64,000 bases of DNA from the NCBI GenBank assembly GCA_020241125.1, contig GCA_020241125.1_4708.1; one strand, written 5' to 3'. Positions 7,217 to 21,507 of the stretch are shown one piece after another. The notes beneath the pieces are model-generated. The model searched no databases, was not told the origin of the DNA, and saw only the letters and a program-made list of their open reading frames with translations. The position numbers and the translations under genes were made by a program. Numbering within the stretch: the stretch's first letter is position 1; every line of letters starts with the position of its first letter. Origin of the DNA: a phage.

Positions 7217-8236
7217 TTACACCGCCACCTTAGCCTTGATAGCGGGGTGTGATTGATATCCGACGAACACAAAGTCTTCGTAACGGTAATCCGTAATACT
7301 TTCTGGTTTACGTACGATTGTTAGCTTCGGTAATGGATACGGCTCACGACTAAGTTGTTCTTTAACCTGTTCGAAATGGTTGTGATAGATATGACAATCT
7401 CCACCTGTCCACACGAACTCACCAACGTCCATATTCAGCTGTTGGGCAAGCATATGTGTTAACAACGAGTATGATGCGACGTTAAAGCTCCAACCCAAGA
7501 GCGTGTCGCACGAACGTTGATAAAGCTGACAGGATAAAGCACGTGTTGGTACGTTATGCGCATTCAACCAGAGTTCTGTTTCACTGTGTCGTACATCATC
7601 CGTAACCCACTGGGTTCTTAGTACGTCATTGCGCTGGACATAATCAACGCGTTCATCGATCGTGAGTTCGTGGGTATAGAACTGATAGAATGAATGGCAC
7701 GGAGCGAGATGCATATCGTCTAAATCACCTACGTTCCACGCGCTAACGATGATTCGTCGAGAATCAGGATCTTCTTTGAGTTGACGCATCATGTTTGCGA
7801 TTTGGTCGTGGTGTTTAACATACAAGAGATGTTTGACCATACCGGCGTCAACAACACCGCAATACTCATAGCCGCGTTGCATCAACTCACGAGTACGTTC
7901 TGTATCATGCGGAACAACCACTTTGTAGTCAATCCATTCTCGCCATTGTCTGCCGTAAATCGGTCCTAGATTCCCTTCCTTATCAGCCCATTCATTCCAA
8001 ATACGAACACCGTTATCTTGAAGATAAGCAACGTTTGTGTCGCCGTTAAGAAACCAGAGCAGTTCGTGGATAACGCTCTTAAGGTGAATCTTCTTGGTGG
8101 TTACCAGCGGAAATCCTTTCTTCAAGTCAAAACGCATCTGACGCCCGAATACCGAACGGGTCCCGGTGCCCGTGCGGTCGGCCTTATCGCGACCGTTATC
8201 CATGATGTCTTGCAAAAGGTCCAAATACTGTTTCAT
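7217..8236 (-). CDS. thyA: thymidylate synthase, ThyA family (339 aa, two insertions relative to E. coli ThyA)
   Basis: [31 protein letters not shown]...[12 protein letters not shown]...[30 protein letters not shown]...[11 protein letters not shown]...SFNVASY...[16 protein letters not shown]; catalytic Cys in the PCH motif and the dUMP-specifying Asn are present. Confidence 0.9.
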
Positions 8237-8445
8237 TTTAATCCTCTAAGTGTTTCGAGTAGTTCCTGAAATTTATAACGATATTTAGGATTGCTTAACG
8301 TGTAACAGCAGCCATGTAACACGTTATACGCGTAATCAACTTGTAAACCATGAACCTTCGGATCCGATGATAGATTCAATGGCACATCATCAAAAATCCA
8401 CGCTTCAATGTTCTTCTTAGATTCCTTCGTTAACATCGTTTTCAC
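8233..8445 (-). CDS. hypothetical protein (70 aa)
   Basis: ORF track; ATGA overlap with thyA. Confidence 0.45.
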
Positions 8446-8509: not shown

Positions 8510-9394
8510 TCAATAACGACCGTAGCGTTCCTCGAGCCGTTTTGGTTTTCTCAGAAGGCTATCTTTAAGTGGTACGACGTCGATATCAACACTCTCTGAG
8601 TAATAGCCGTTAGAACTACCATACCAACGGATAACAACACAACCCTTTGCAGTACGGATATGGTAAAATGTCCATTGTATACGTTCGCTGTAATAACCGT
8701 AGTTATCGGTTCTTTCCTCGGTTCTTTCTTCAGCACTGAGTATCTTTTCACCGATGATATCATTAATATCGCCGTCAATGTCTTCAAGATACACCTCTTC
8801 GCAGCAATCCTGCTGATGACAGAATTCGACAACGTTTCCATCACCACGATAGAAAAGAAGGGCGATACCGTTTCGTAATTGCTCGCTCGTTACATCAGAC
8901 ACACAATGCAAACTTTTATCGTCGGTAATCACCAAGACGTTGTTGATTACATGTCCGGCAAGCGCTCCGATCTTATTTACCGTGATAATCGGACGAACCG
9001 GTTCAGATTGAACGATAGGAATACGGACACAACCAATTAAAGCCATCCGTCCTTTCTTTGGTCTAACCGCAAGATACGGTGATTTTCTTGGGTGGTTATG
9101 TAGTCGTATTTCTACTTCGTTGAATTTAATCCCGTATGAACACAGAAAATAATTGAATAGTTTACGGAATTCCTCGGTTGCTTCTTGCAACGTGATGTTA
9201 TTTACTGTGAGTTTATGTCCCCTGAACACCCGGGTTAGATCGATAACATCCAGCGTTTTGAAATATATTTCCGTAAGGGGATGACCTGTGTATTCCAGGC
9301 AAGTAATTGTTCTTTGAACCACGATTTTAGGTTGTGCACCTTTAAAACGTTTCAGGTATTTAACACGATAGCGTGTATGATCTGATGTTAACAT
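8510..9394 (-). CDS. hypothetical protein (~294 aa; start moved to internal ATG with GGAGAGGAG RBS)
   Basis: ORF track 8510..9493; the longer N-terminus would overlap a terminator hairpin. Confidence 0.5.
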   Translation of the reverse strand: MLTSDHTRYRVKYLKRFKGAQPKIVVQRTITCLEYTGHPLTEIYFKTLDVIDLTRVFRGHKLTVNNITLQEATEEFRKLFNYFLCSYGIKFNEVEIRLHNHPRKSPYLAVRPKKGRMALIGCVRIPIVQSEPVRPIITVNKIGALAGHVINNVLVITDDKSLHCVSDVTSEQLRNGIALLFYRGDGNVVEFCHQQDCCEEVYLEDIDGDINDIIGEKILSAEERTEERTDNYGYYSERIQWTFYHIRTAKGCVVIRWYGSSNGYYSESVDIDVVPLKDSLLRKPKRLEERYGRY

Positions 9395-9467
9395 TTTAAT
9401 CTCCTCTCCCGACTTCAGAGAATTCTTAAAATCCGTTAGTTTTGATAGATAGGGTAAGACGGCATAA

Positions 9468-9490
9468 AAGCATCCCATTACGGGATGCTT
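9468..9490 (-). terminator. hairpin (AAGCATCCC/GGGATGCTT) with UUUUAUGCCG tail in minus sense
   Basis: Inverted repeat directly after stop of 9502..10050. Confidence 0.5.
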
Positions 9491-9501
9491 CATTAATCAG
9501 C

Positions 9502-10050
9502 TTATTTCACAAGAACAGCGAATTCGAGAACATGAATAGCTTCATCGTCCATCGGATTTGTCGCGGTATAACCAACGAAGCAATAGCCCATATCCACGAT
9601 AAACTCGCTAAGTTTATCGATGACTGATACCCCGATACGATCGTCAACAGACAGACGACATTTACGGGTTATGTTTTGCCCGCGAGGAACGCCAGCTAAC
9701 ACGGATAGGAAATGTACGATCCGGTTATTGGTTGCGAACTGCATGTAATCATCGTAGTACTTAAGGTCTTTCATCGCAGACTCTACCGTCATACGACGAC
9801 CAGGTGACACATACTCAGAATAAGAATAAGCTGCGATCGTACGACGATCTTCAGTAAGGTAAGTATTCCCTTCGGGATGATAACTCTCGACTGTTCCGTC
9901 TTCATGGGTGACGGTCACAACAGGTGCGCCGTACTCGTCGCGACCGAATTCAATCTTACATTTATCCGAAAGCGGTAGAATCGTACAAGGCTTTGCGTTG
10001 TTCTCATCAGGGAGATTGTAACCGCTCATCATTTTCAAAAAGATAGACAT
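9502..10050 (-). CDS. hypothetical protein (182 aa), paralog of 10137..10670
   Basis: Shared features with neighbour: NNAKP near N-terminus, IEFxRD, TIAxYxYS. Confidence 0.6.
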   Translation of the reverse strand: MSIFLKMMSGYNLPDENNAKPCTILPLSDKCKIEFGRDEYGAPVVTVTHEDGTVESYHPEGNTYLTEDRRTIAAYSYSEYVSPGRRMTVESAMKDLKYYDDYMQFATNNRIVHFLSVLAGVPRGQNITRKCRLSVDDRIGVSVIDKLSEFIVDMGYCFVGYTATNPMDDEAIHVLEFAVLVK

Positions 10051-10102
10051 AATAGAACCTCATGATAATAGATAATAGAAATGATAGATAGTACAACAAA
10101 TT

Positions 10103-10126
10103 GAGGGGGTATTATCCCACCCCCTC
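10103..10126 (-). terminator. GC hairpin (GAGGGGGT/ACCCCCTC) followed by U-rich tract in minus sense
   Basis: Inverted repeat after stop of 10137..10670. Confidence 0.5.
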
Positions 10127-10136
10127 GTAGGGATTA

Positions 10137-10670
10137 CTACTTAACGACCGCGATGATTTTGCCGCTCGCACCGGCGTAATATGCCGTTAATTCACCAGTA
10201 AACAACTCTTGTAAAAGACGATTTACATGACTAACAAAGTTAGGATTGTCTGATTTTACAAACTCGATATTGCGCGTTTGTTTTATATCACGATCGATTA
10301 AACGTATTTCCAACAACGCACAAATAAGGCGATCGTCGAGTTTACCACTCGTATCCAACACTTCCCCATACGTCGTAGCACGGACGTCCGCATACATACG
10401 GTCAACATCATCCTTCCCAAAACCACAGGAATAGGCGTACGTTGCGATGGTATTACCGTTGTCCATCACGTAAACGTTACCGCCCGGGTAATCGATAAAT
10501 CGTTGATCCTTATCGCCATGAGCGACGAACTCCAGTGTCGGTCTACCCATCGAATCACGGTTGAATTCAATTGTGGTCAAACGGTCAGGCACCACATGCA
10601 ACGTAAACGGTTTCGCGTTGTTACGATCGCTAGTATCGCAGTTACCCATTACTTTTACGATAACACTCAT
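10137..10670 (-). CDS. hypothetical protein (177 aa), paralog of 9502..10050
   Basis: See paralog. Confidence 0.6.
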   Translation of the reverse strand: MSVIVKVMGNCDTSDRNNAKPFTLHVVPDRLTTIEFNRDSMGRPTLEFVAHGDKDQRFIDYPGGNVYVMDNGNTIATYAYSCGFGKDDVDRMYADVRATTYGEVLDTSGKLDDRLICALLEIRLIDRDIKQTRNIEFVKSDNPNFVSHVNRLLQELFTGELTAYYAGASGKIIAVVK

Positions 10671-10747
10671 GTTTTATTCCTTAGTAGTCCTAGTAGTAGT
10701 AGTATTGAGGAATTTCACCTCATTAGATAGTCTATTTTGGTAATGTT

Positions 10748-11047
10748 TTACTGAAACAAGACATTAAATTCGACAAGATACCCATCGGATCTATCACCAC
10801 GATATCTGTTGCAGAAAACACCGAATTTCATCAAGAACGCACATAACTCTTCGGCTTTGTATAACGGAATACGATTTTCGTCGAGCAGAGGGCAACTATG
10901 GCTAACCCGCTCCGACGAATCAACGCAACACAAATAAAGAAGGAACCGAACAATAGCTCGGTTCTTAGTGAAGCTCTCGAATTCACCCGCAGTTCTGAAC
11001 TCATCGAGGAGCTTTGTCGTTTTCTTCAATCGTTCACGATCGAGCAT
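10748..11047 (-). CDS. hypothetical protein (99 aa)
   Basis: ORF track. Confidence 0.45.
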   Translation of the reverse strand: MLDRERLKKTTKLLDEFRTAGEFESFTKNRAIVRFLLYLCCVDSSERVSHSCPLLDENRIPLYKAEELCAFLMKFGVFCNRYRGDRSDGYLVEFNVLFQ

Positions 11048-11110
11048 GTTAACCTCAATACGAACATAACCCTCCTCCTTCCCTGTTGGGTTGGAGGAGG
11101 GAATATGCTG

Positions 11111-11425
11111 TTATTCTGTTTTCGGTGTTGAACCGTTCTTCTTGAAGTCGGATTCGTATTTCACGTTAGAATCGAGAACCTCACGAACGGTTTTATCCGT
11201 ACAACCACGAGCGATGTATGCATTAAGATCATCACGTAATTTACGCATCGTTGTTTTATCCGCATCAGAAACATCTGACTTGGTAAGACGGAATGCGATT
11301 GCATCGCGAATTTTATTCAACGTTGCTGGGTTATTACGCTGTTCTGCAAATACCGCTTTGATGAACTTATCGCTATCTTTCGAAGCAATAGCAGCATCAA
11401 GAATCTCAATATGCTTTTCAGACAT
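11111..11425 (-). CDS. hypothetical protein (104 aa)
   Basis: ORF track. Confidence 0.5.
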   Translation of the reverse strand: MSEKHIEILDAAIASKDSDKFIKAVFAEQRNNPATLNKIRDAIAFRLTKSDVSDADKTTMRKLRDDLNAYIARGCTDKTVREVLDSNVKYESDFKKNGSTPKTE

Positions 11426-11476
11426 CTTCTTTCCTTTAATAAACGATCATCGTCATATTCATTGCGCGTGACGTCG

Positions 11477-12730
11477 TCACTTCAGAAGCTTAGACGCCGC
11501 CATGCTTCGCGCCTTCGCAACGTCATACGCATCCATGATTGCGTCACCGATAGCGGTATGACGGATCAACGGAATACCCATATCTGGATACTCTTTGGTA
11601 CCTAAGATGGATACCGGTTTGTCTTGATATGCGGCAATCATCGAACGGATATCCTGAACCTGGTTATAACGACAAACTGGCTTAAAGCCTGCTTTACGGA
11701 ACCAATGCTCTAATTGAGGCCAATCTGTTTCACCGCGAGCAAGATAATAGAAGGCATCCTTACCGTAATATTCGGTCATTTCATCACGGATATTGTTAAC
11801 AAACGCATTCACTGTGGTAATGGCTTCTTTATAGTCCATCACTCCGTCATGCTGAAAACAATAGTCGCGCGCTTCCTTCGGTGCTTTGGTTTGCCACCAT
11901 TCTACCGTGGACTTACTAATATCACCACCATCAGCGATTTGACCATAAACGTCAGGGAAGATATCTATACGTGGGCCGTTAATAACAGATTCTGGATTAG
12001 CTAGATCAAAGAACAAGATGCCGATTTCCAGCAGTACCCCGTTCTTTTCCAGACTGAGATTCTCCACATCCAGGCAAAACGCAGGTTTCTCTACCGCTGA
12101 AAAATCAAAATATCCTTCGAAACGTGGCGTTGGTTCAGCAGCGAGAAACGTCTCATGGACGAACTGAGAGAATGTCTTATTCTCTGCTACTAAGTCAATG
12201 CCCAATTTACTTAGCAGTGGTATAAGCGCACGGTCGTTCTGCTCGATTATCACCAACTCTTGGTTTTTGATATAACGACCAATTGAGTAAAAAAGATGAA
12301 CGATATCTAACGGTTTATACGGAGCCCCAAATGTTGTTCCCTGGAACGACTGAGCTAGCGCCTTATGCGTTTCTTCGCGATGATTCATCAGTTGGATAAT
12401 AGCGCAGCGCAGATAATACCGTAATGTTATCTCGTGAAGATGCGACGTATCTTCCTGAAATAACGTCATGAAACCGTGATACGTATAATACTCTCCTCTT
12501 TTAATTTCTTCGAGGAGTTCTTTGTCCCCATTTATTTCCTCTGGTGTTATCGGTTCGATTTGATCGTGGATAATGTTGAGCAGGTCACTGCCGTGTACCT
12601 TAAACAGTTTTTCAACGTCAAGATTAGGTAAAGTCGCAATCGCCGCGTACATTAATGTTTCTGCGGGATTAAGTTCTTTATTGTCAATTGTGATGGTTAA
12701 AGCCATTTTGTTATACCTCATCGAAATCAA
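11477..12730 (-). CDS. putative 3'-5' exonuclease, DnaQ-like DEDDh-type C-terminal domain (417 aa)
   Basis: CLDVENLSL (Exo I-like D-x-E) and IRHTAIGDAIMDAYDV (Exo III-like H-x-A-x-x-D...D); N-terminal ~200 aa unassigned. Confidence 0.45.
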   Translation of the reverse strand: MISMRYNKMALTITIDNKELNPAETLMYAAIATLPNLDVEKLFKVHGSDLLNIIHDQIEPITPEEINGDKELLEEIKRGEYYTYHGFMTLFQEDTSHLHEITLRYYLRCAIIQLMNHREETHKALAQSFQGTTFGAPYKPLDIVHLFYSIGRYIKNQELVIIEQNDRALIPLLSKLGIDLVAENKTFSQFVHETFLAAEPTPRFEGYFDFSAVEKPAFCLDVENLSLEKNGVLLEIGILFFDLANPESVINGPRIDIFPDVYGQIADGGDISKSTVEWWQTKAPKEARDYCFQHDGVMDYKEAITTVNAFVNNIRDEMTEYYGKDAFYYLARGETDWPQLEHWFRKAGFKPVCRYNQVQDIRSMIAAYQDKPVSILGTKEYPDMGIPLIRHTAIGDAIMDAYDVAKARSMAASKLLK

Positions 12731-18530: not shown

Positions 18531-19217
18531 TTAACACATGATTTCACCATGTTTCTTTTCAACATACGTATAAACATCATCCAAATAAGCAATGAGTTTA
18601 TCACGATCCGCACAGAGCGATTTAATCATCGCAATCTCTTTCATATAAAGCTGCTGACCTAACGCCGGATAGGTAATCCAAGCGTAGCCGTCAGGCGCAA
18701 ATTTAGAAATAAGATAATCGGCGGTTTCCTGTAATGCGAACTCTTTGCTCATCTGGCCGTAACGATGTTCGATTGCACGGATACCAAAACGTTCGCTATC
18801 GAGACGGCCCATATCCGCCAGACGAAGCACTTGAGAGGCAACCGAACTACGTGGACCAGAATACGAGGCACGATGTTCAGCAATAAGTACGCGTATCTCC
18901 TCGATGTCTTCCGGTGTGAAAATATGCTGCTCGTTACGAAGCAGGATAACCGATGCACGAATACCCCCGATAAGGTGGTGGTATGTTCTGTTTTCGTGGC
19001 AAGCGATATCATGCATAAATGCAGCGGTTAATAGACGACGACGTTCCGTGGGTCTGATGATCCCAACCACATCAGCAAGTTCATTTGCCAGTTCAACAAC
19101 GGCAAGCACATGTTCTTCTTGATGTGCAAGATCGTTCTTCCGAATATTTTCAATTACTTCAGCGCGAGTTTCCCGAGATAAGAAATTTAAACAATCCAAC
19201 GAATATAAAGATTTCAT
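18531..19217 (-). CDS. hypothetical protein (228 aa), possible HD-motif hydrolase
   Basis: AAFMHDIACHENRTYHH contains an HD dyad (weak); AAAGAGG RBS; promoter-like motif 40 nt upstream. Confidence 0.5.
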   Translation of the reverse strand: MKSLYSLDCLNFLSRETRAEVIENIRKNDLAHQEEHVLAVVELANELADVVGIIRPTERRRLLTAAFMHDIACHENRTYHHLIGGIRASVILLRNEQHIFTPEDIEEIRVLIAEHRASYSGPRSSVASQVLRLADMGRLDSERFGIRAIEHRYGQMSKEFALQETADYLISKFAPDGYAWITYPALGQQLYMKEIAMIKSLCADRDKLIAYLDDVYTYVEKKHGEIMC

Positions 19218-19262
19218 TGCACGTACCTCTTTGAATCTATTAATAAATTTTCTTTACTCACG

Positions 19263-19282
19263 TAAGTAATATAGCCGTGAAA
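19263..19282 (-). promoter_or_regulatory. conserved promoter-like motif, copy 1 (minus sense TTTCACGGCTATATTACTTA)
   Basis: One of four near-identical copies; TATATTAC core ~40 nt upstream of ATG at 19217. Confidence 0.5.
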
Positions 19283-19361
19283 GGATTTGTGTTGGTCCGT
19301 TTCGATACCCATCGTATTTTATGGATTGTCGAATGACGTCATTTTAAGGGACATCCCCGGC

Positions 19362-19395
19362 CTCCTCCCCAGGAAAGGTGTGGGGAGGAGTTTTT
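19362..19395 (+). terminator. plus-oriented terminator-like hairpin (CTCCTCCCC/GGGGAGGAG + TTTTT) in a divergent intergenic region
   Basis: 9-bp stem followed by T5, ~30 nt upstream of the SNF2 ATG; function unclear. Confidence 0.35.
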
Positions 19396-19425
19396 ATCAT
19401 ACATTCTATTAAATCGAGCGCGATT

Positions 19426-21507
19426 ATGTTGGATAGAATCAATCGTTTAATGAACCGAATAGCGGTTAAAAATCAGAGTAACAATACCGTGCATATCGGG
19501 GGTATCGATGCCTGGCGTCTTTCAGATGACATTCAGCGAATATGGGGTACCTCCCGATTTATGAAACACATGTTTCGTAATTTCTCTTCCAGTGGTCTCA
19601 GTCTCCACAACTTTTACCTTCCCGATTTCGTTTATATTCTCGAAACGATCATCGAGGCAAAGAATACTCGCAGTAATAAACGCATGCTGAAACACCTTAT
19701 TGAGGTACTGCTGCAGGAAACCTGGTTGCAAAATACCACAATCGAGCAACCTGCAATCCTCGATAAAGCACGCATGAACAAAATGCTAACGCTCTCCCTG
19801 TTCGATTATCAAGATGAGTTTATCGACATCTATAACCGTAACGTACCTAAATATCGACTGAAAGGATACGTGTGTGCGATGGGTGCGGGTGCCGGTAAAA
19901 CAATCACCGCGTTGGCTTTAAGCGCCGCAATGAACGTCGACGTATTTGTGGTCTGCTGTCCTAAGAACACCATGCGTTCAGCATGGCAATCCGATGTAAA
20001 CAAAGCCATCGTTGACCCCGCAACAGAAACCGCATTCTGGTCAGATACAATGCCACCGTCACAGCTGCAGAAAAGCGATAAGTATTATTTTCTGCATTAC
20101 GAGTCGATGGGTTTATTAAACGATGTAATGATCAAGCATAAACGCACCGCGAAGCGCGTGTTGATCGTGGTTGATGAAAGCCATAACTTCAACGACAAGA
20201 ACAGCCAACGTTCCCAACGACTGGTTGATCTCGTACAGACGATGCGTCAGACCATGAATGCGGATGTGCATGTCTTGTTTATGTCGGGTACGCCCGTTAA
20301 ACAGATGGGTTCTGAGATGATCCCCTGTTTAGGTTGTATTGACCCGATGTTCCAAGGACAGGTGGTCGATAGCTTCAAAGCAATTTACGGTTTAACCAGC
20401 AGCCGCGCTAACGATATCCTCAGACATCGTCTTGGGTTCATGATGCATGTTGTACCTAAAGAGGCTTATCGTAAAACCCGGCCGGAAGTTCAGGACGTTT
20501 ACGTGAAGCTCCCTAACGGTAGCGATTATACCATCTCGAGTATCCGCGACGACATGGCGATATTCGTACGCGATCGGGCGAAGTATTACAAGGATAACTG
20601 GGGGCATTACAGAAAGATTTTTGATGACGCCTTGGACTACTATCGTAAGACTATTCGTACCGATGGTGAACGTAAAGAGCTATCTCGATACGAATCGATT
20701 GTTGCTCGTTTCCAGAAAGGTTACGACCCCGTCAGAGACAAAGAAGATGCGATGTTCTGCAACGCGTTTGAAAAACGTTCTATTATGCCGGTTCTTCCTT
20801 CTGATTTAAGGGTTGCTTTCAAAGACGCCAAGAGCGTCATCAAGTACGTTGGGTTGAAAATTCAGGGTGAAGCGTTGGCGCGTGTTCTAGGTGCAGCCCG
20901 CATTCGGTGTCATGTCGACATGGTGGAGTACATCGACTTCGAAGGGTACATCAATAACGCTGAAGCCAAGGTGTTGATCTTCACGTCGTACGTTCAGGTG
21001 GTTGAGCGTGTCGACAACATGCTTCGCGATGCCGGTTTCTTACCGGAACCCATTTACGGGAAGACCAACAAGAACATCAACCAGATACTTGCTCGCTTAC
21101 GCGATGATCCTGACAGCGGTCCCGCTATCGCAACATTTGATAGCTTAGCCGAAGGGGTTCCGATGTTGATGTGTAACGTGGGTCTCTTCTTGAACAACCC
21201 ATGGCGTTCATCCGATGAAATCCAAGCCATCAGCCGTCTCGATCGTGTAGGGCAAACGCAACCTGTTCGGATTTATCGTTTCATGTTAGATACAGGAAGC
21301 GAGGGTAACGTTTCTACACGTAGCCACGAAATCATGGAGTTAAGTCGACAGCTTGTTGAAGAAATCACAGGCGTCAAATACGTGGTGAACAAGCAAGATG
21401 CTGTTAACTTGCAGGAAACGTTGGCGATGGAAGGATACGATCAATACGTTACCGTAAACACCACGGAATACGATATTAAACCACGACCTGCGTTCTTGGA
21501 ATGGTGA
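19426..21507 (+). CDS. SNF2-family helicase/ATPase
   Basis: GAGAGKT (Walker A), VVDESHNF (DExH), SGTPV (motif III), QAISRLDRVGQTQPVRIYRF (SNF2 motif VI). Start placed at first ATG; the track ORF starts at an upstream GTG inside the hairpin. Confidence 0.75.
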   Translation: MLDRINRLMNRIAVKNQSNNTVHIGGIDAWRLSDDIQRIWGTSRFMKHMFRNFSSSGLSLHNFYLPDFVYILETIIEAKNTRSNKRMLKHLIEVLLQETWLQNTTIEQPAILDKARMNKMLTLSLFDYQDEFIDIYNRNVPKYRLKGYVCAMGAGAGKTITALALSAAMNVDVFVVCCPKNTMRSAWQSDVNKAIVDPATETAFWSDTMPPSQLQKSDKYYFLHYESMGLLNDVMIKHKRTAKRVLIVVDESHNFNDKNSQRSQRLVDLVQTMRQTMNADVHVLFMSGTPVKQMGSEMIPCLGCIDPMFQGQVVDSFKAIYGLTSSRANDILRHRLGFMMHVVPKEAYRKTRPEVQDVYVKLPNGSDYTISSIRDDMAIFVRDRAKYYKDNWGHYRKIFDDALDYYRKTIRTDGERKELSRYESIVARFQKGYDPVRDKEDAMFCNAFEKRSIMPVLPSDLRVAFKDAKSVIKYVGLKIQGEALARVLGAARIRCHVDMVEYIDFEGYINNAEAKVLIFTSYVQVVERVDNMLRDAGFLPEPIYGKTNKNINQILARLRDDPDSGPAIATFDSLAEGVPMLMCNVGLFLNNPWRSSDEIQAISRLDRVGQTQPVRIYRFMLDTGSEGNVSTRSHEIMELSRQLVEEITGVKYVVNKQDAVNLQETLAMEGYDQYVTVNTTEYDIKPRPAFLEW

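Follow-up and report, generated by a model that had tools for sequence, protein, structure and literature searches.

Genes and signals of the locus

We analyzed a phage-derived window, i.e., the whole stretch of 64,000 nucleotides, which across the region of the gene pair studied here shares 95% nucleotide identity with Escherichia phage vB_EcoM_Goslar. Judged by its sequence, the source of the window is a Goslar-like nucleus-forming jumbo phage (Chimalliviridae). The initial annotation had described two adjacent genes of 182 and 177 amino acids as a tandem paralogous pair, each with its own hairpin terminator. Both open reading frames (ORFs) were found on the minus strand with the coordinates and lengths claimed. 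They correspond to Goslar gp143 and gp144, both annotated as hypothetical proteins, and are referred to below as A182 and B177; the ORF next upstream in the array is called C99. The features are as follows.

9468..9490, minus strand: hairpin after A182, AAGCAUCCC-GUAAU-GGGAUGCUU then UUAUGCC (fold -16.2 kcal/mol, z = -4.1)
9502..10050, minus strand: A182, 182 aa, ortholog of Goslar gp143 (Goslar_00143), 93% amino acid identity
9811-10050, minus strand: A182 residues 1-80, N-module (shared module)
9505-9810, minus strand: A182 residues 81-182, C-domain, predicted alpha/beta
10103..10126, minus strand: hairpin after B177, GAGGGGGUG-GGAUAA-UACCCCCUC then AAUUUGUUGU (terminator scan; fold -18 kcal/mol)
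10137..10670, minus strand: B177, 177 aa, ortholog of Goslar gp144 (Goslar_00144)
10422-10670, minus strand: B177 residues 1-83, N-module (shared module)
10140-10421, minus strand: B177 residues 84-177, C-part, with relatives detected among its own orthologs only
10698..10719, minus strand: junction of a missing third paralog, where two blastn segments against the relative L005 overlap by 22 nt
10748..11047, minus strand: C99, 99-aa ORF, free-standing homolog of the A182 C-domain

Both hairpins assigned to the pair are real, and terminators are annotated at the homologous Goslar sites. Between C99 and a 104-aa gene (11111-11425), window 11050-11092 (-) contains a strong hairpin (CCCUCCUCC...GGAGGAGGG; -28.9 kcal/mol, z = -5.4). 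Since C99 is followed by a weak hairpin only (-6 kcal/mol), C99 and B177 may be co-transcribed. Scanning window 9300-11600 for sigma-70-type promoters returned 0 matches, compared to 5.8 ± 2.2 expected from shuffles, which fits a phage using its own RNA polymerases for transcription. ATGAGG, considered as a common promoter motif upstream of A182 and B177, was discarded: one occurrence is a ribosome-binding site and the other lies within a weak hairpin.

On the other side of the pair, a DUF7448 gene (Pfam E = 1.4e-23) occupies window 8510-9493 (-). It is also found in the relatives L005 and L008 and is absent from Goslar at the corresponding place, the Goslar alignment being interrupted between window 9405 and 8509. 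The 327-aa DUF7448 ORF as listed begins within the A182 terminator; in relatives, the start is an internal MLTSDHTRY and the product has 294 aa (8510-9394). The interval between the thymidylate synthase and DUF7448 genes (window 7217-8445 (-), L005 7234-8835) also varies among relatives, with one 70-aa gene in the window and Goslar and with a 79-aa and a 109-aa gene in L005 and L008. Because of this variation in gene content, we regard the interval from thyA to the exonuclease gene as a hyperplastic accessory region.

Orthologs of the pair are numerous and lie on 235-249 kb contigs in E. coli, Salmonella, Shigella and Enterobacter assemblies. Many isolate assemblies, under the labels E. coli, Salmonella enterica, Shigella flexneri and Enterobacter hormaechei, contain near-complete Goslar-like genomes, which suggests either carrier-state infection or contamination of the sequenced cultures.

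A conserved N-terminal module joined to fast-changing C-terminal parts

All three motifs that had been proposed as common to both proteins were found (DENNAKPCT/DRNNAKPFT, KIEFGRDEYGAP/TIEFNRDSMGRP and TIAAYSYS/TIATYAYS, in A182/B177, respectively). BLASTP aligned A182 residues 1-78 with B177 residues 1-81 at 40% identity (E = 4e-14), and a profile-profile comparison of the two ortholog families gave 98.4% probability (E = 8.5e-15). The Smith-Waterman score was 132, compared to 24.7 ± 4.6 for 1,000 shuffles, none of which reached 132 (z = 23); by the shuffled control that the initial annotation had put forward, the similarity is far above chance. These alignments indicate that A182 and B177 are paralogous over the first ~80 residues. 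The module starts at residue 1-3 in both proteins, and a profile search of all window ORFs recovered it in these two copies only. Synonymous sites in the two modules are saturated (proportion of synonymous differences, pS, 0.77), so that the duplication is old.

The similarity ends at about residue 80. Beyond this point, the C-terminal halves of A182 and B177 reached a Smith-Waterman score of 21, compared to 25.2 ± 4.9 for shuffles (z = -0.9), 869 of 1,000 shuffles reaching 21, and their family profiles gave no match by hhalign (E = 0.46). Similarly, the B177 C-half scored z = -0.9 to -0.5 against every other C-domain (hhalign E = 0.27-0.68), and its profile matched no other window ORF. The proposed local duplication followed by divergence is thus upheld for the N-terminal ~80 residues, while a simple tandem duplication of the whole gene is doubtful: the pair has the adjacency, common strand and similar length of whole-gene tandem paralogs, but not their full-length homology.

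Among the window ORFs, the profile of the A182 C-domain matched only A182 itself and C99. The relation between the two was detected by phmmer within the window (E about 1e-4), by Smith-Waterman (score 69, z = 10.8, reached by 0 of 1,000 shuffles) and by hhalign (96.9% probability, E = 2e-10, 85 columns). BLASTP of A182 against C99 gave no match; given that the three other methods all detect the relation, this is a sensitivity problem. Their sequences thus identify the A182 C-half as homologous to C99. The two are only distantly related and share no nucleotide homology able to drive recombination. C99 has its own ATG and GAGG ribosome-binding site, and its omega against relatives is 0.08-0.19, indicating purifying selection. 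In Goslar it is 99% identical (MK327938, 134266-134562 (-)) and unannotated, the record having a plus-strand ORF, Goslar_00145 (134413-134640), at this place. As C99 is conserved, homologous to the gp143 C-domain and under purifying selection, it is almost certainly C99, and not Goslar_00145, that is the real gene, and the Goslar annotation is probably on the wrong strand.

We then followed the suggestion of a dN/dS analysis, using the Nei-Gojobori method and comparing N and C parts within the same genome pairs. Omega was 0.03-0.14 for the N-modules, indicating strong purifying selection. At the protein level, change in the C-domains is 4-8 times faster than in the N-modules, with a dN of 0.60 versus 0.075 in B177 and of 0.34 versus 0.084 in A182, and mean column entropy is ~2-fold higher in the C-halves (32-73 distinct orthologs). 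Where dS was unsaturated, C-domain omega was 0.2-0.6 and therefore below 1. In a blastn comparison of B177 with L005, the flanks aligned at 82-92% nucleotide identity, whereas the ~245 bp encoding the C-part gave no alignment; on these grounds, the B177 C-part exists as sharply different alleles. Either allele replacement or very fast change of the C-parts is well supported by these sequence comparisons.

The AlphaFold2 model of A182 (pLDDT 92.4, pTM 0.80) places seven strands in the N-module, at residues 3-8, 22-27, 32-37, 43-48, 54-57, 63-67 and 70-75, and the isolated B177 N-module was also modelled with seven strands (pLDDT 90.3). The N-module is thus predicted to be a seven-strand all-beta domain. 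The A182 C-domain was modelled as three consecutive helices, then a strand, a fourth helix and two further strands. All homologs that Foldseek returned from BFVD are uncharacterised (Goslar, MadMel, Phabio, 201phi2-1 and CcrSC). For the N-module, no close solved structure was found and a profile search of the PDB gave nothing credible, the PDB candidates being too weak for assigning a fold family or function. A match of A182 to Gloeobacter phycobilisome linker proteins (9k9w, E = 3e-4) was rejected as chance, because no single stretch passes the threshold and the match spans the boundary of the two predicted domains.

Copy number and distribution of the module

In L005 and L008, two more distant Goslar-like genomes, the array reads C99, a 200/201-aa gene, the B ortholog, the A ortholog and the DUF7448 gene. 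The 200/201-aa gene, which lies at 4323-4925 in L005 and is missing from the window and from Goslar, is a third N-module paralog. Its N terminus begins MTIYLKMINGH...NTYVV, and the z scores of its N-module are 25 with A182 and 16 with B177. The alignment with Goslar gp143 covers residues 1-174 (26% identity, E = 8e-8).

In L005, TTACTACT direct repeats lie on both sides of the extra gene. The C99-B177 spacer of the window is a precise chimera of two L005 sequences, the one upstream of the 200-aa gene and the one upstream of the B ortholog, joined at this direct repeat. Furthermore, the same ~670-bp segment distinguishes L007 from L008, two genomes with 97-98% identity, indicating that copy number is variable among close relatives. 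The comparison of copy number among related phages, which the initial annotation had also called for, thus gave three or two N-module genes between close relatives. We read the two-copy state as a deletion, which is more parsimonious than an insertion. Since relatives carry three N-module genes, the pair is the remainder, in the window lineage, of a larger variable cluster. This history of the array, consisting of an old N-module duplication, a free copy of a C-module and the recent loss of one member, is well supported.

To place the module among other phages, we searched a library of 1.84 billion representatives (50% identity clusters) with the N-module profile. It matched 580 clusters at E ≤ 0.001 and 367 at E ≤ 1e-10, and recovered the cluster representatives of both ortholog groups (P0092, E = 3e-19; P0054, E = 6.9e-18). 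In 146 of the 150 best library matches the module begins within residues 1-6. Family alignments share the motifs VK-x-MSGE, D-x-N-x-SK-x-F and GN-x-YV...T-I-A-[ST]-[FY]. The proteins range from 73 to 481 aa; 100 of 172 family sequences are at most 100 aa long and consist of the module alone (~75-100 aa), and 44 of 172 exceed 130 aa. C-terminal extensions of at least 50 residues numbered 47 and fell into 32 BLAST-distinct groups.

B177 matched phrog_10337 (E = 3.2e-7) and phrog_10807 (E = 5.6e-6), A182 matched PHROGs weakly (E = 1.1e-3), and free-standing N-module members did so at up to E = 6e-43. The two PHROGs, a 99-aa profile and a 379-aa profile of the RAY gp198 type, respectively, contain the same N-terminal module as the pair and are both labelled "unknown function." They are automatic clusters for which neither a function nor a structure or domain definition is described, and they miss the architecture of a constant N-module with variable C termini.

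Members in cultured phages, all annotated as hypothetical, come from jumbo phages that are chimalliviruses or others (Goslar, the RAY group with the 379-aa gp198, 201phi2-1 gp34, Salmonella phage SA002 and Proteus phage 10) and from the smaller, ~45-kb Acinetobacter Obolenskvirus phages; overall, the module occurs also in phages of ~35-60 kb. Mid-size phages tend to carry the free-standing gene at the borders of the packaging-head module. In L011 and L016 it is flanked by MuF on one side and by the scaffold/capsid genes on the other; in Acinetobacter phage WCHABP1 (gp42) it follows MuF, and in L022, L028 and L004 it is located upstream of terminase genes. In a chimallin-encoding contig, it adjoins the divergent DNA polymerase gene. 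HNH endonuclease genes adjoin N-module genes or sit within a few kilobases of them in several unrelated phages (L009, i.e., 201phi2-1 19152-20778, where gp35 adjoins gp34; L004 3228-4007; L010 6891-7448), which could either point to mobility or be coincidental.

Pfam, NCBIfam and PADLOC scans of A182, B177, C99 and the free-standing and long members gave nothing above noise. No relatives were found in bacterial genomes with two narrow peptide patterns and one genome per species, which is weak evidence of absence from prophages. The literature contained no mention of a function for Goslar gp143/gp144, for RAY gp198 or for the PHROG numbers, and text matches for "gp143" and "gp144" were all PhiKZ proteins.

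Expression and possible role

In the Goslar RNA-seq data, which are tallied per annotated gene and whose library may not be strand-specific, gp143 and gp144 each have ~860-970 raw reads (Armbruster et al., 10.1101/2023.09.20.558163, Supplementary Table 2). Upon ChmA knockdown, their log2 fold change is about +0.1, while that of the capsid gene gp41 is about -4 (10.1101/2023.09.20.558163). Because they remain unchanged while late genes fall, we assign both to the early, nucleus-independent class. LC-MS of virions detected gp143 with 3 peptides (~4.5-10.5 estimated copies per virion) and gp144 with 2 peptides (~1.1-2.6 estimated copies per virion) (10.64898/2026.04.21.720040, Table S4), and the masses in this table agree with the translations of A182 and B177. 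The proteins are thus made but are not significant virion components: the published Goslar tables show neither the late expression nor the substantial copy number of a virion-packaged protein.

Taken as a whole, the locus is best explained, in our view with reasonable probability, as a constant-module/variable-module accessory array with a role in host interaction. Its evolutionary and architectural part is highly probable. The cluster combines two kinds of module, a constant N-terminal domain of ~80 residues, predicted to be all-beta, and a fast-changing C-terminal domain, one type of which also exists as the separate neighboring gene C99. The functional part, that the products are accessory host-interaction proteins serving host takeover or counter-defence, is tentative. 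Such products would be non-essential and would target the host from within the cytoplasm at an early stage; the constant module may supply a common activity, e.g., binding of one conserved partner or ligand, and the variable domain a target-specific activity under an arms race. This role is favored by the early expression, the non-core status of the genes, their hyperplastic stretch and the constant/variable pattern. Against it, the free-standing members in smaller phages are usually in or next to the packaging-head module, which is normally expressed late, so that an early cytoplasmic effector role does not fit the whole family. The arms race is likewise open to objection, since fast change of the C-domain, with an omega below 1 where dS is unsaturated, could reflect relaxed constraint.

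A plain whole-gene tandem duplication, in which all C-halves descend from one ancestor and that of B177 has diverged beyond sequence recognition, would account for two adjacent genes of similar length on the same strand, and we regard it as possible but doubtful. MAFFT sets the two C-halves collinear with like hydrophobic patterns. The third paralog aligns with gp143 over both domains, and P0199, a more distant homolog of 185 aa, forms a bridge among A182 (z = 12), the third paralog (z = 3.8) and C99 (z = 3.4), so that strong divergence inside one C-fold is demonstrably possible. This account is opposed by the B177 C-half, which stays at the level of shuffles against every other C-domain, and by the family at large, in which the N-module is joined to at least 32 unrelated C termini and domain replacement is therefore common. 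It also leaves C99 as a separate gene unexplained.

The position of free-standing members between MuF and scaffold/capsid genes, or just upstream of terminase genes, would suit a module that serves as a capsid-targeting or packaging handle, the proteins traveling inside the virion and leaving it together with the DNA, in the manner of the T4 internal proteins or of injected chimallivirus proteins. The gp143 and gp144 peptides in purified Goslar virions point in the same direction, but their estimated 1-10 copies per virion are in the range of carry-over. Furthermore, virion genes drop ~16-fold upon ChmA knockdown, unlike these two early, nucleus-independent genes, and, in 201phi2-1, gp30, gp32 and gp36 are flagged as virion proteins but their neighbor gp34 is not. 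We therefore consider a packaging handle improbable.

It is very improbable that the locus is a polymorphic-effector locus in which C99 represents an orphan C-domain cassette recombining into N-module genes, as in Rhs/CDI. The homology of C99 to the A182 C-domain within the same array, the B177 C-segment that looks replaced between relatives while its flanks remain similar, and the highly polymorphic C termini of the family would agree with such a cassette. C99, however, has its own start codon and ribosome-binding site, is under purifying selection as a protein and is too distant from the A182 C-domain to offer nucleotide homology for recombination, and no toxin-like or immunity-like gene was recognised with Pfam, NCBIfam, PADLOC or PHROG. 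Finally, a chance or compositional similarity, or ORFs that are not real genes, is already refuted by the score against shuffles (z = 23), dozens of conserved orthologs, omega values far below 1, peptides and transcripts in Goslar and confident structure models.

The preferred reading, an accessory array of constant and variable modules, can be set beside known systems. The DUF7941 paralogs of Goslar (gp22, gp23, gp31 and others; 10.64898/2026.04.21.720040) resemble the pair in having, in the same phage, a multi-copy N-terminal module with differing C-terminal domains. However, DUF7941 proteins are abundant virion or host-recognition proteins confined to chimalliviruses (10.64898/2026.04.21.720040), whereas the present module is found in traces in virions, is expressed early and occurs also in ~35-60 kb phages. 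No DUF7941 match was found in A182 or B177 (Pfam scan, E ≤ 1).

By analogy, the T4 internal proteins would resemble the pair in combining a constant N-terminal part with a fast-diversifying rest, in being encoded at a variable accessory locus and in their proposed anti-host role. Their constant part is a capsid-targeting peptide of 10-20 residues that is cut off by the prohead protease; they are made late, are abundant in heads and are encoded at a hyperplastic locus. Unlike this peptide, the constant part of the pair is a predicted folded domain of 80 residues that often stands alone, and the Goslar genes are early and their products scarce in virions.

Bacterial polymorphic toxin loci (Rhs, CDI, MuF-toxins) contain orphan C-terminal cassettes. 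They would be comparable to the array in their conserved N-terminal part, polymorphic C termini and a neighboring free copy of one C-domain type. They differ from it in that no toxin or immunity domains were recognised here, C99 is intact and under purifying selection, and nothing in the array implies an apparatus for secretion or delivery.

Tandem and modular paralogy in the accessory regions of jumbo phages is already known, and the evolution of the gene family is in this respect ordinary. The analysis connects two hypothetical proteins of a model nucleus-forming phage to a compact, confidently modelled domain of ~580 clusters that has neither a curated family nor a solved relative, and it amends what is probably a wrong-strand annotation in the Goslar record. 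One could go further and imagine the N-module as a portable handle with one conserved docking partner, a component of the host or of the phage, and with interchangeable, fast-evolving effector domains attached to it in phages of 40 kb to 300 kb. We hold this to be a speculative and rather improbable extension; if true, the Goslar-group array of two or three N-module genes and a free C-domain gene would be the phage equivalent of a polymorphic effector locus and would work during the first minutes of infection.

Within the accessory array as we favor it, the C-terminal parts attached to an early-expressed domain vary even among near-identical phages. Constant/variable accessory genes in hyperplastic regions often serve host takeover or counter-defence, which makes gp143, gp144 and C99 reasonable candidates for knockdown screens.
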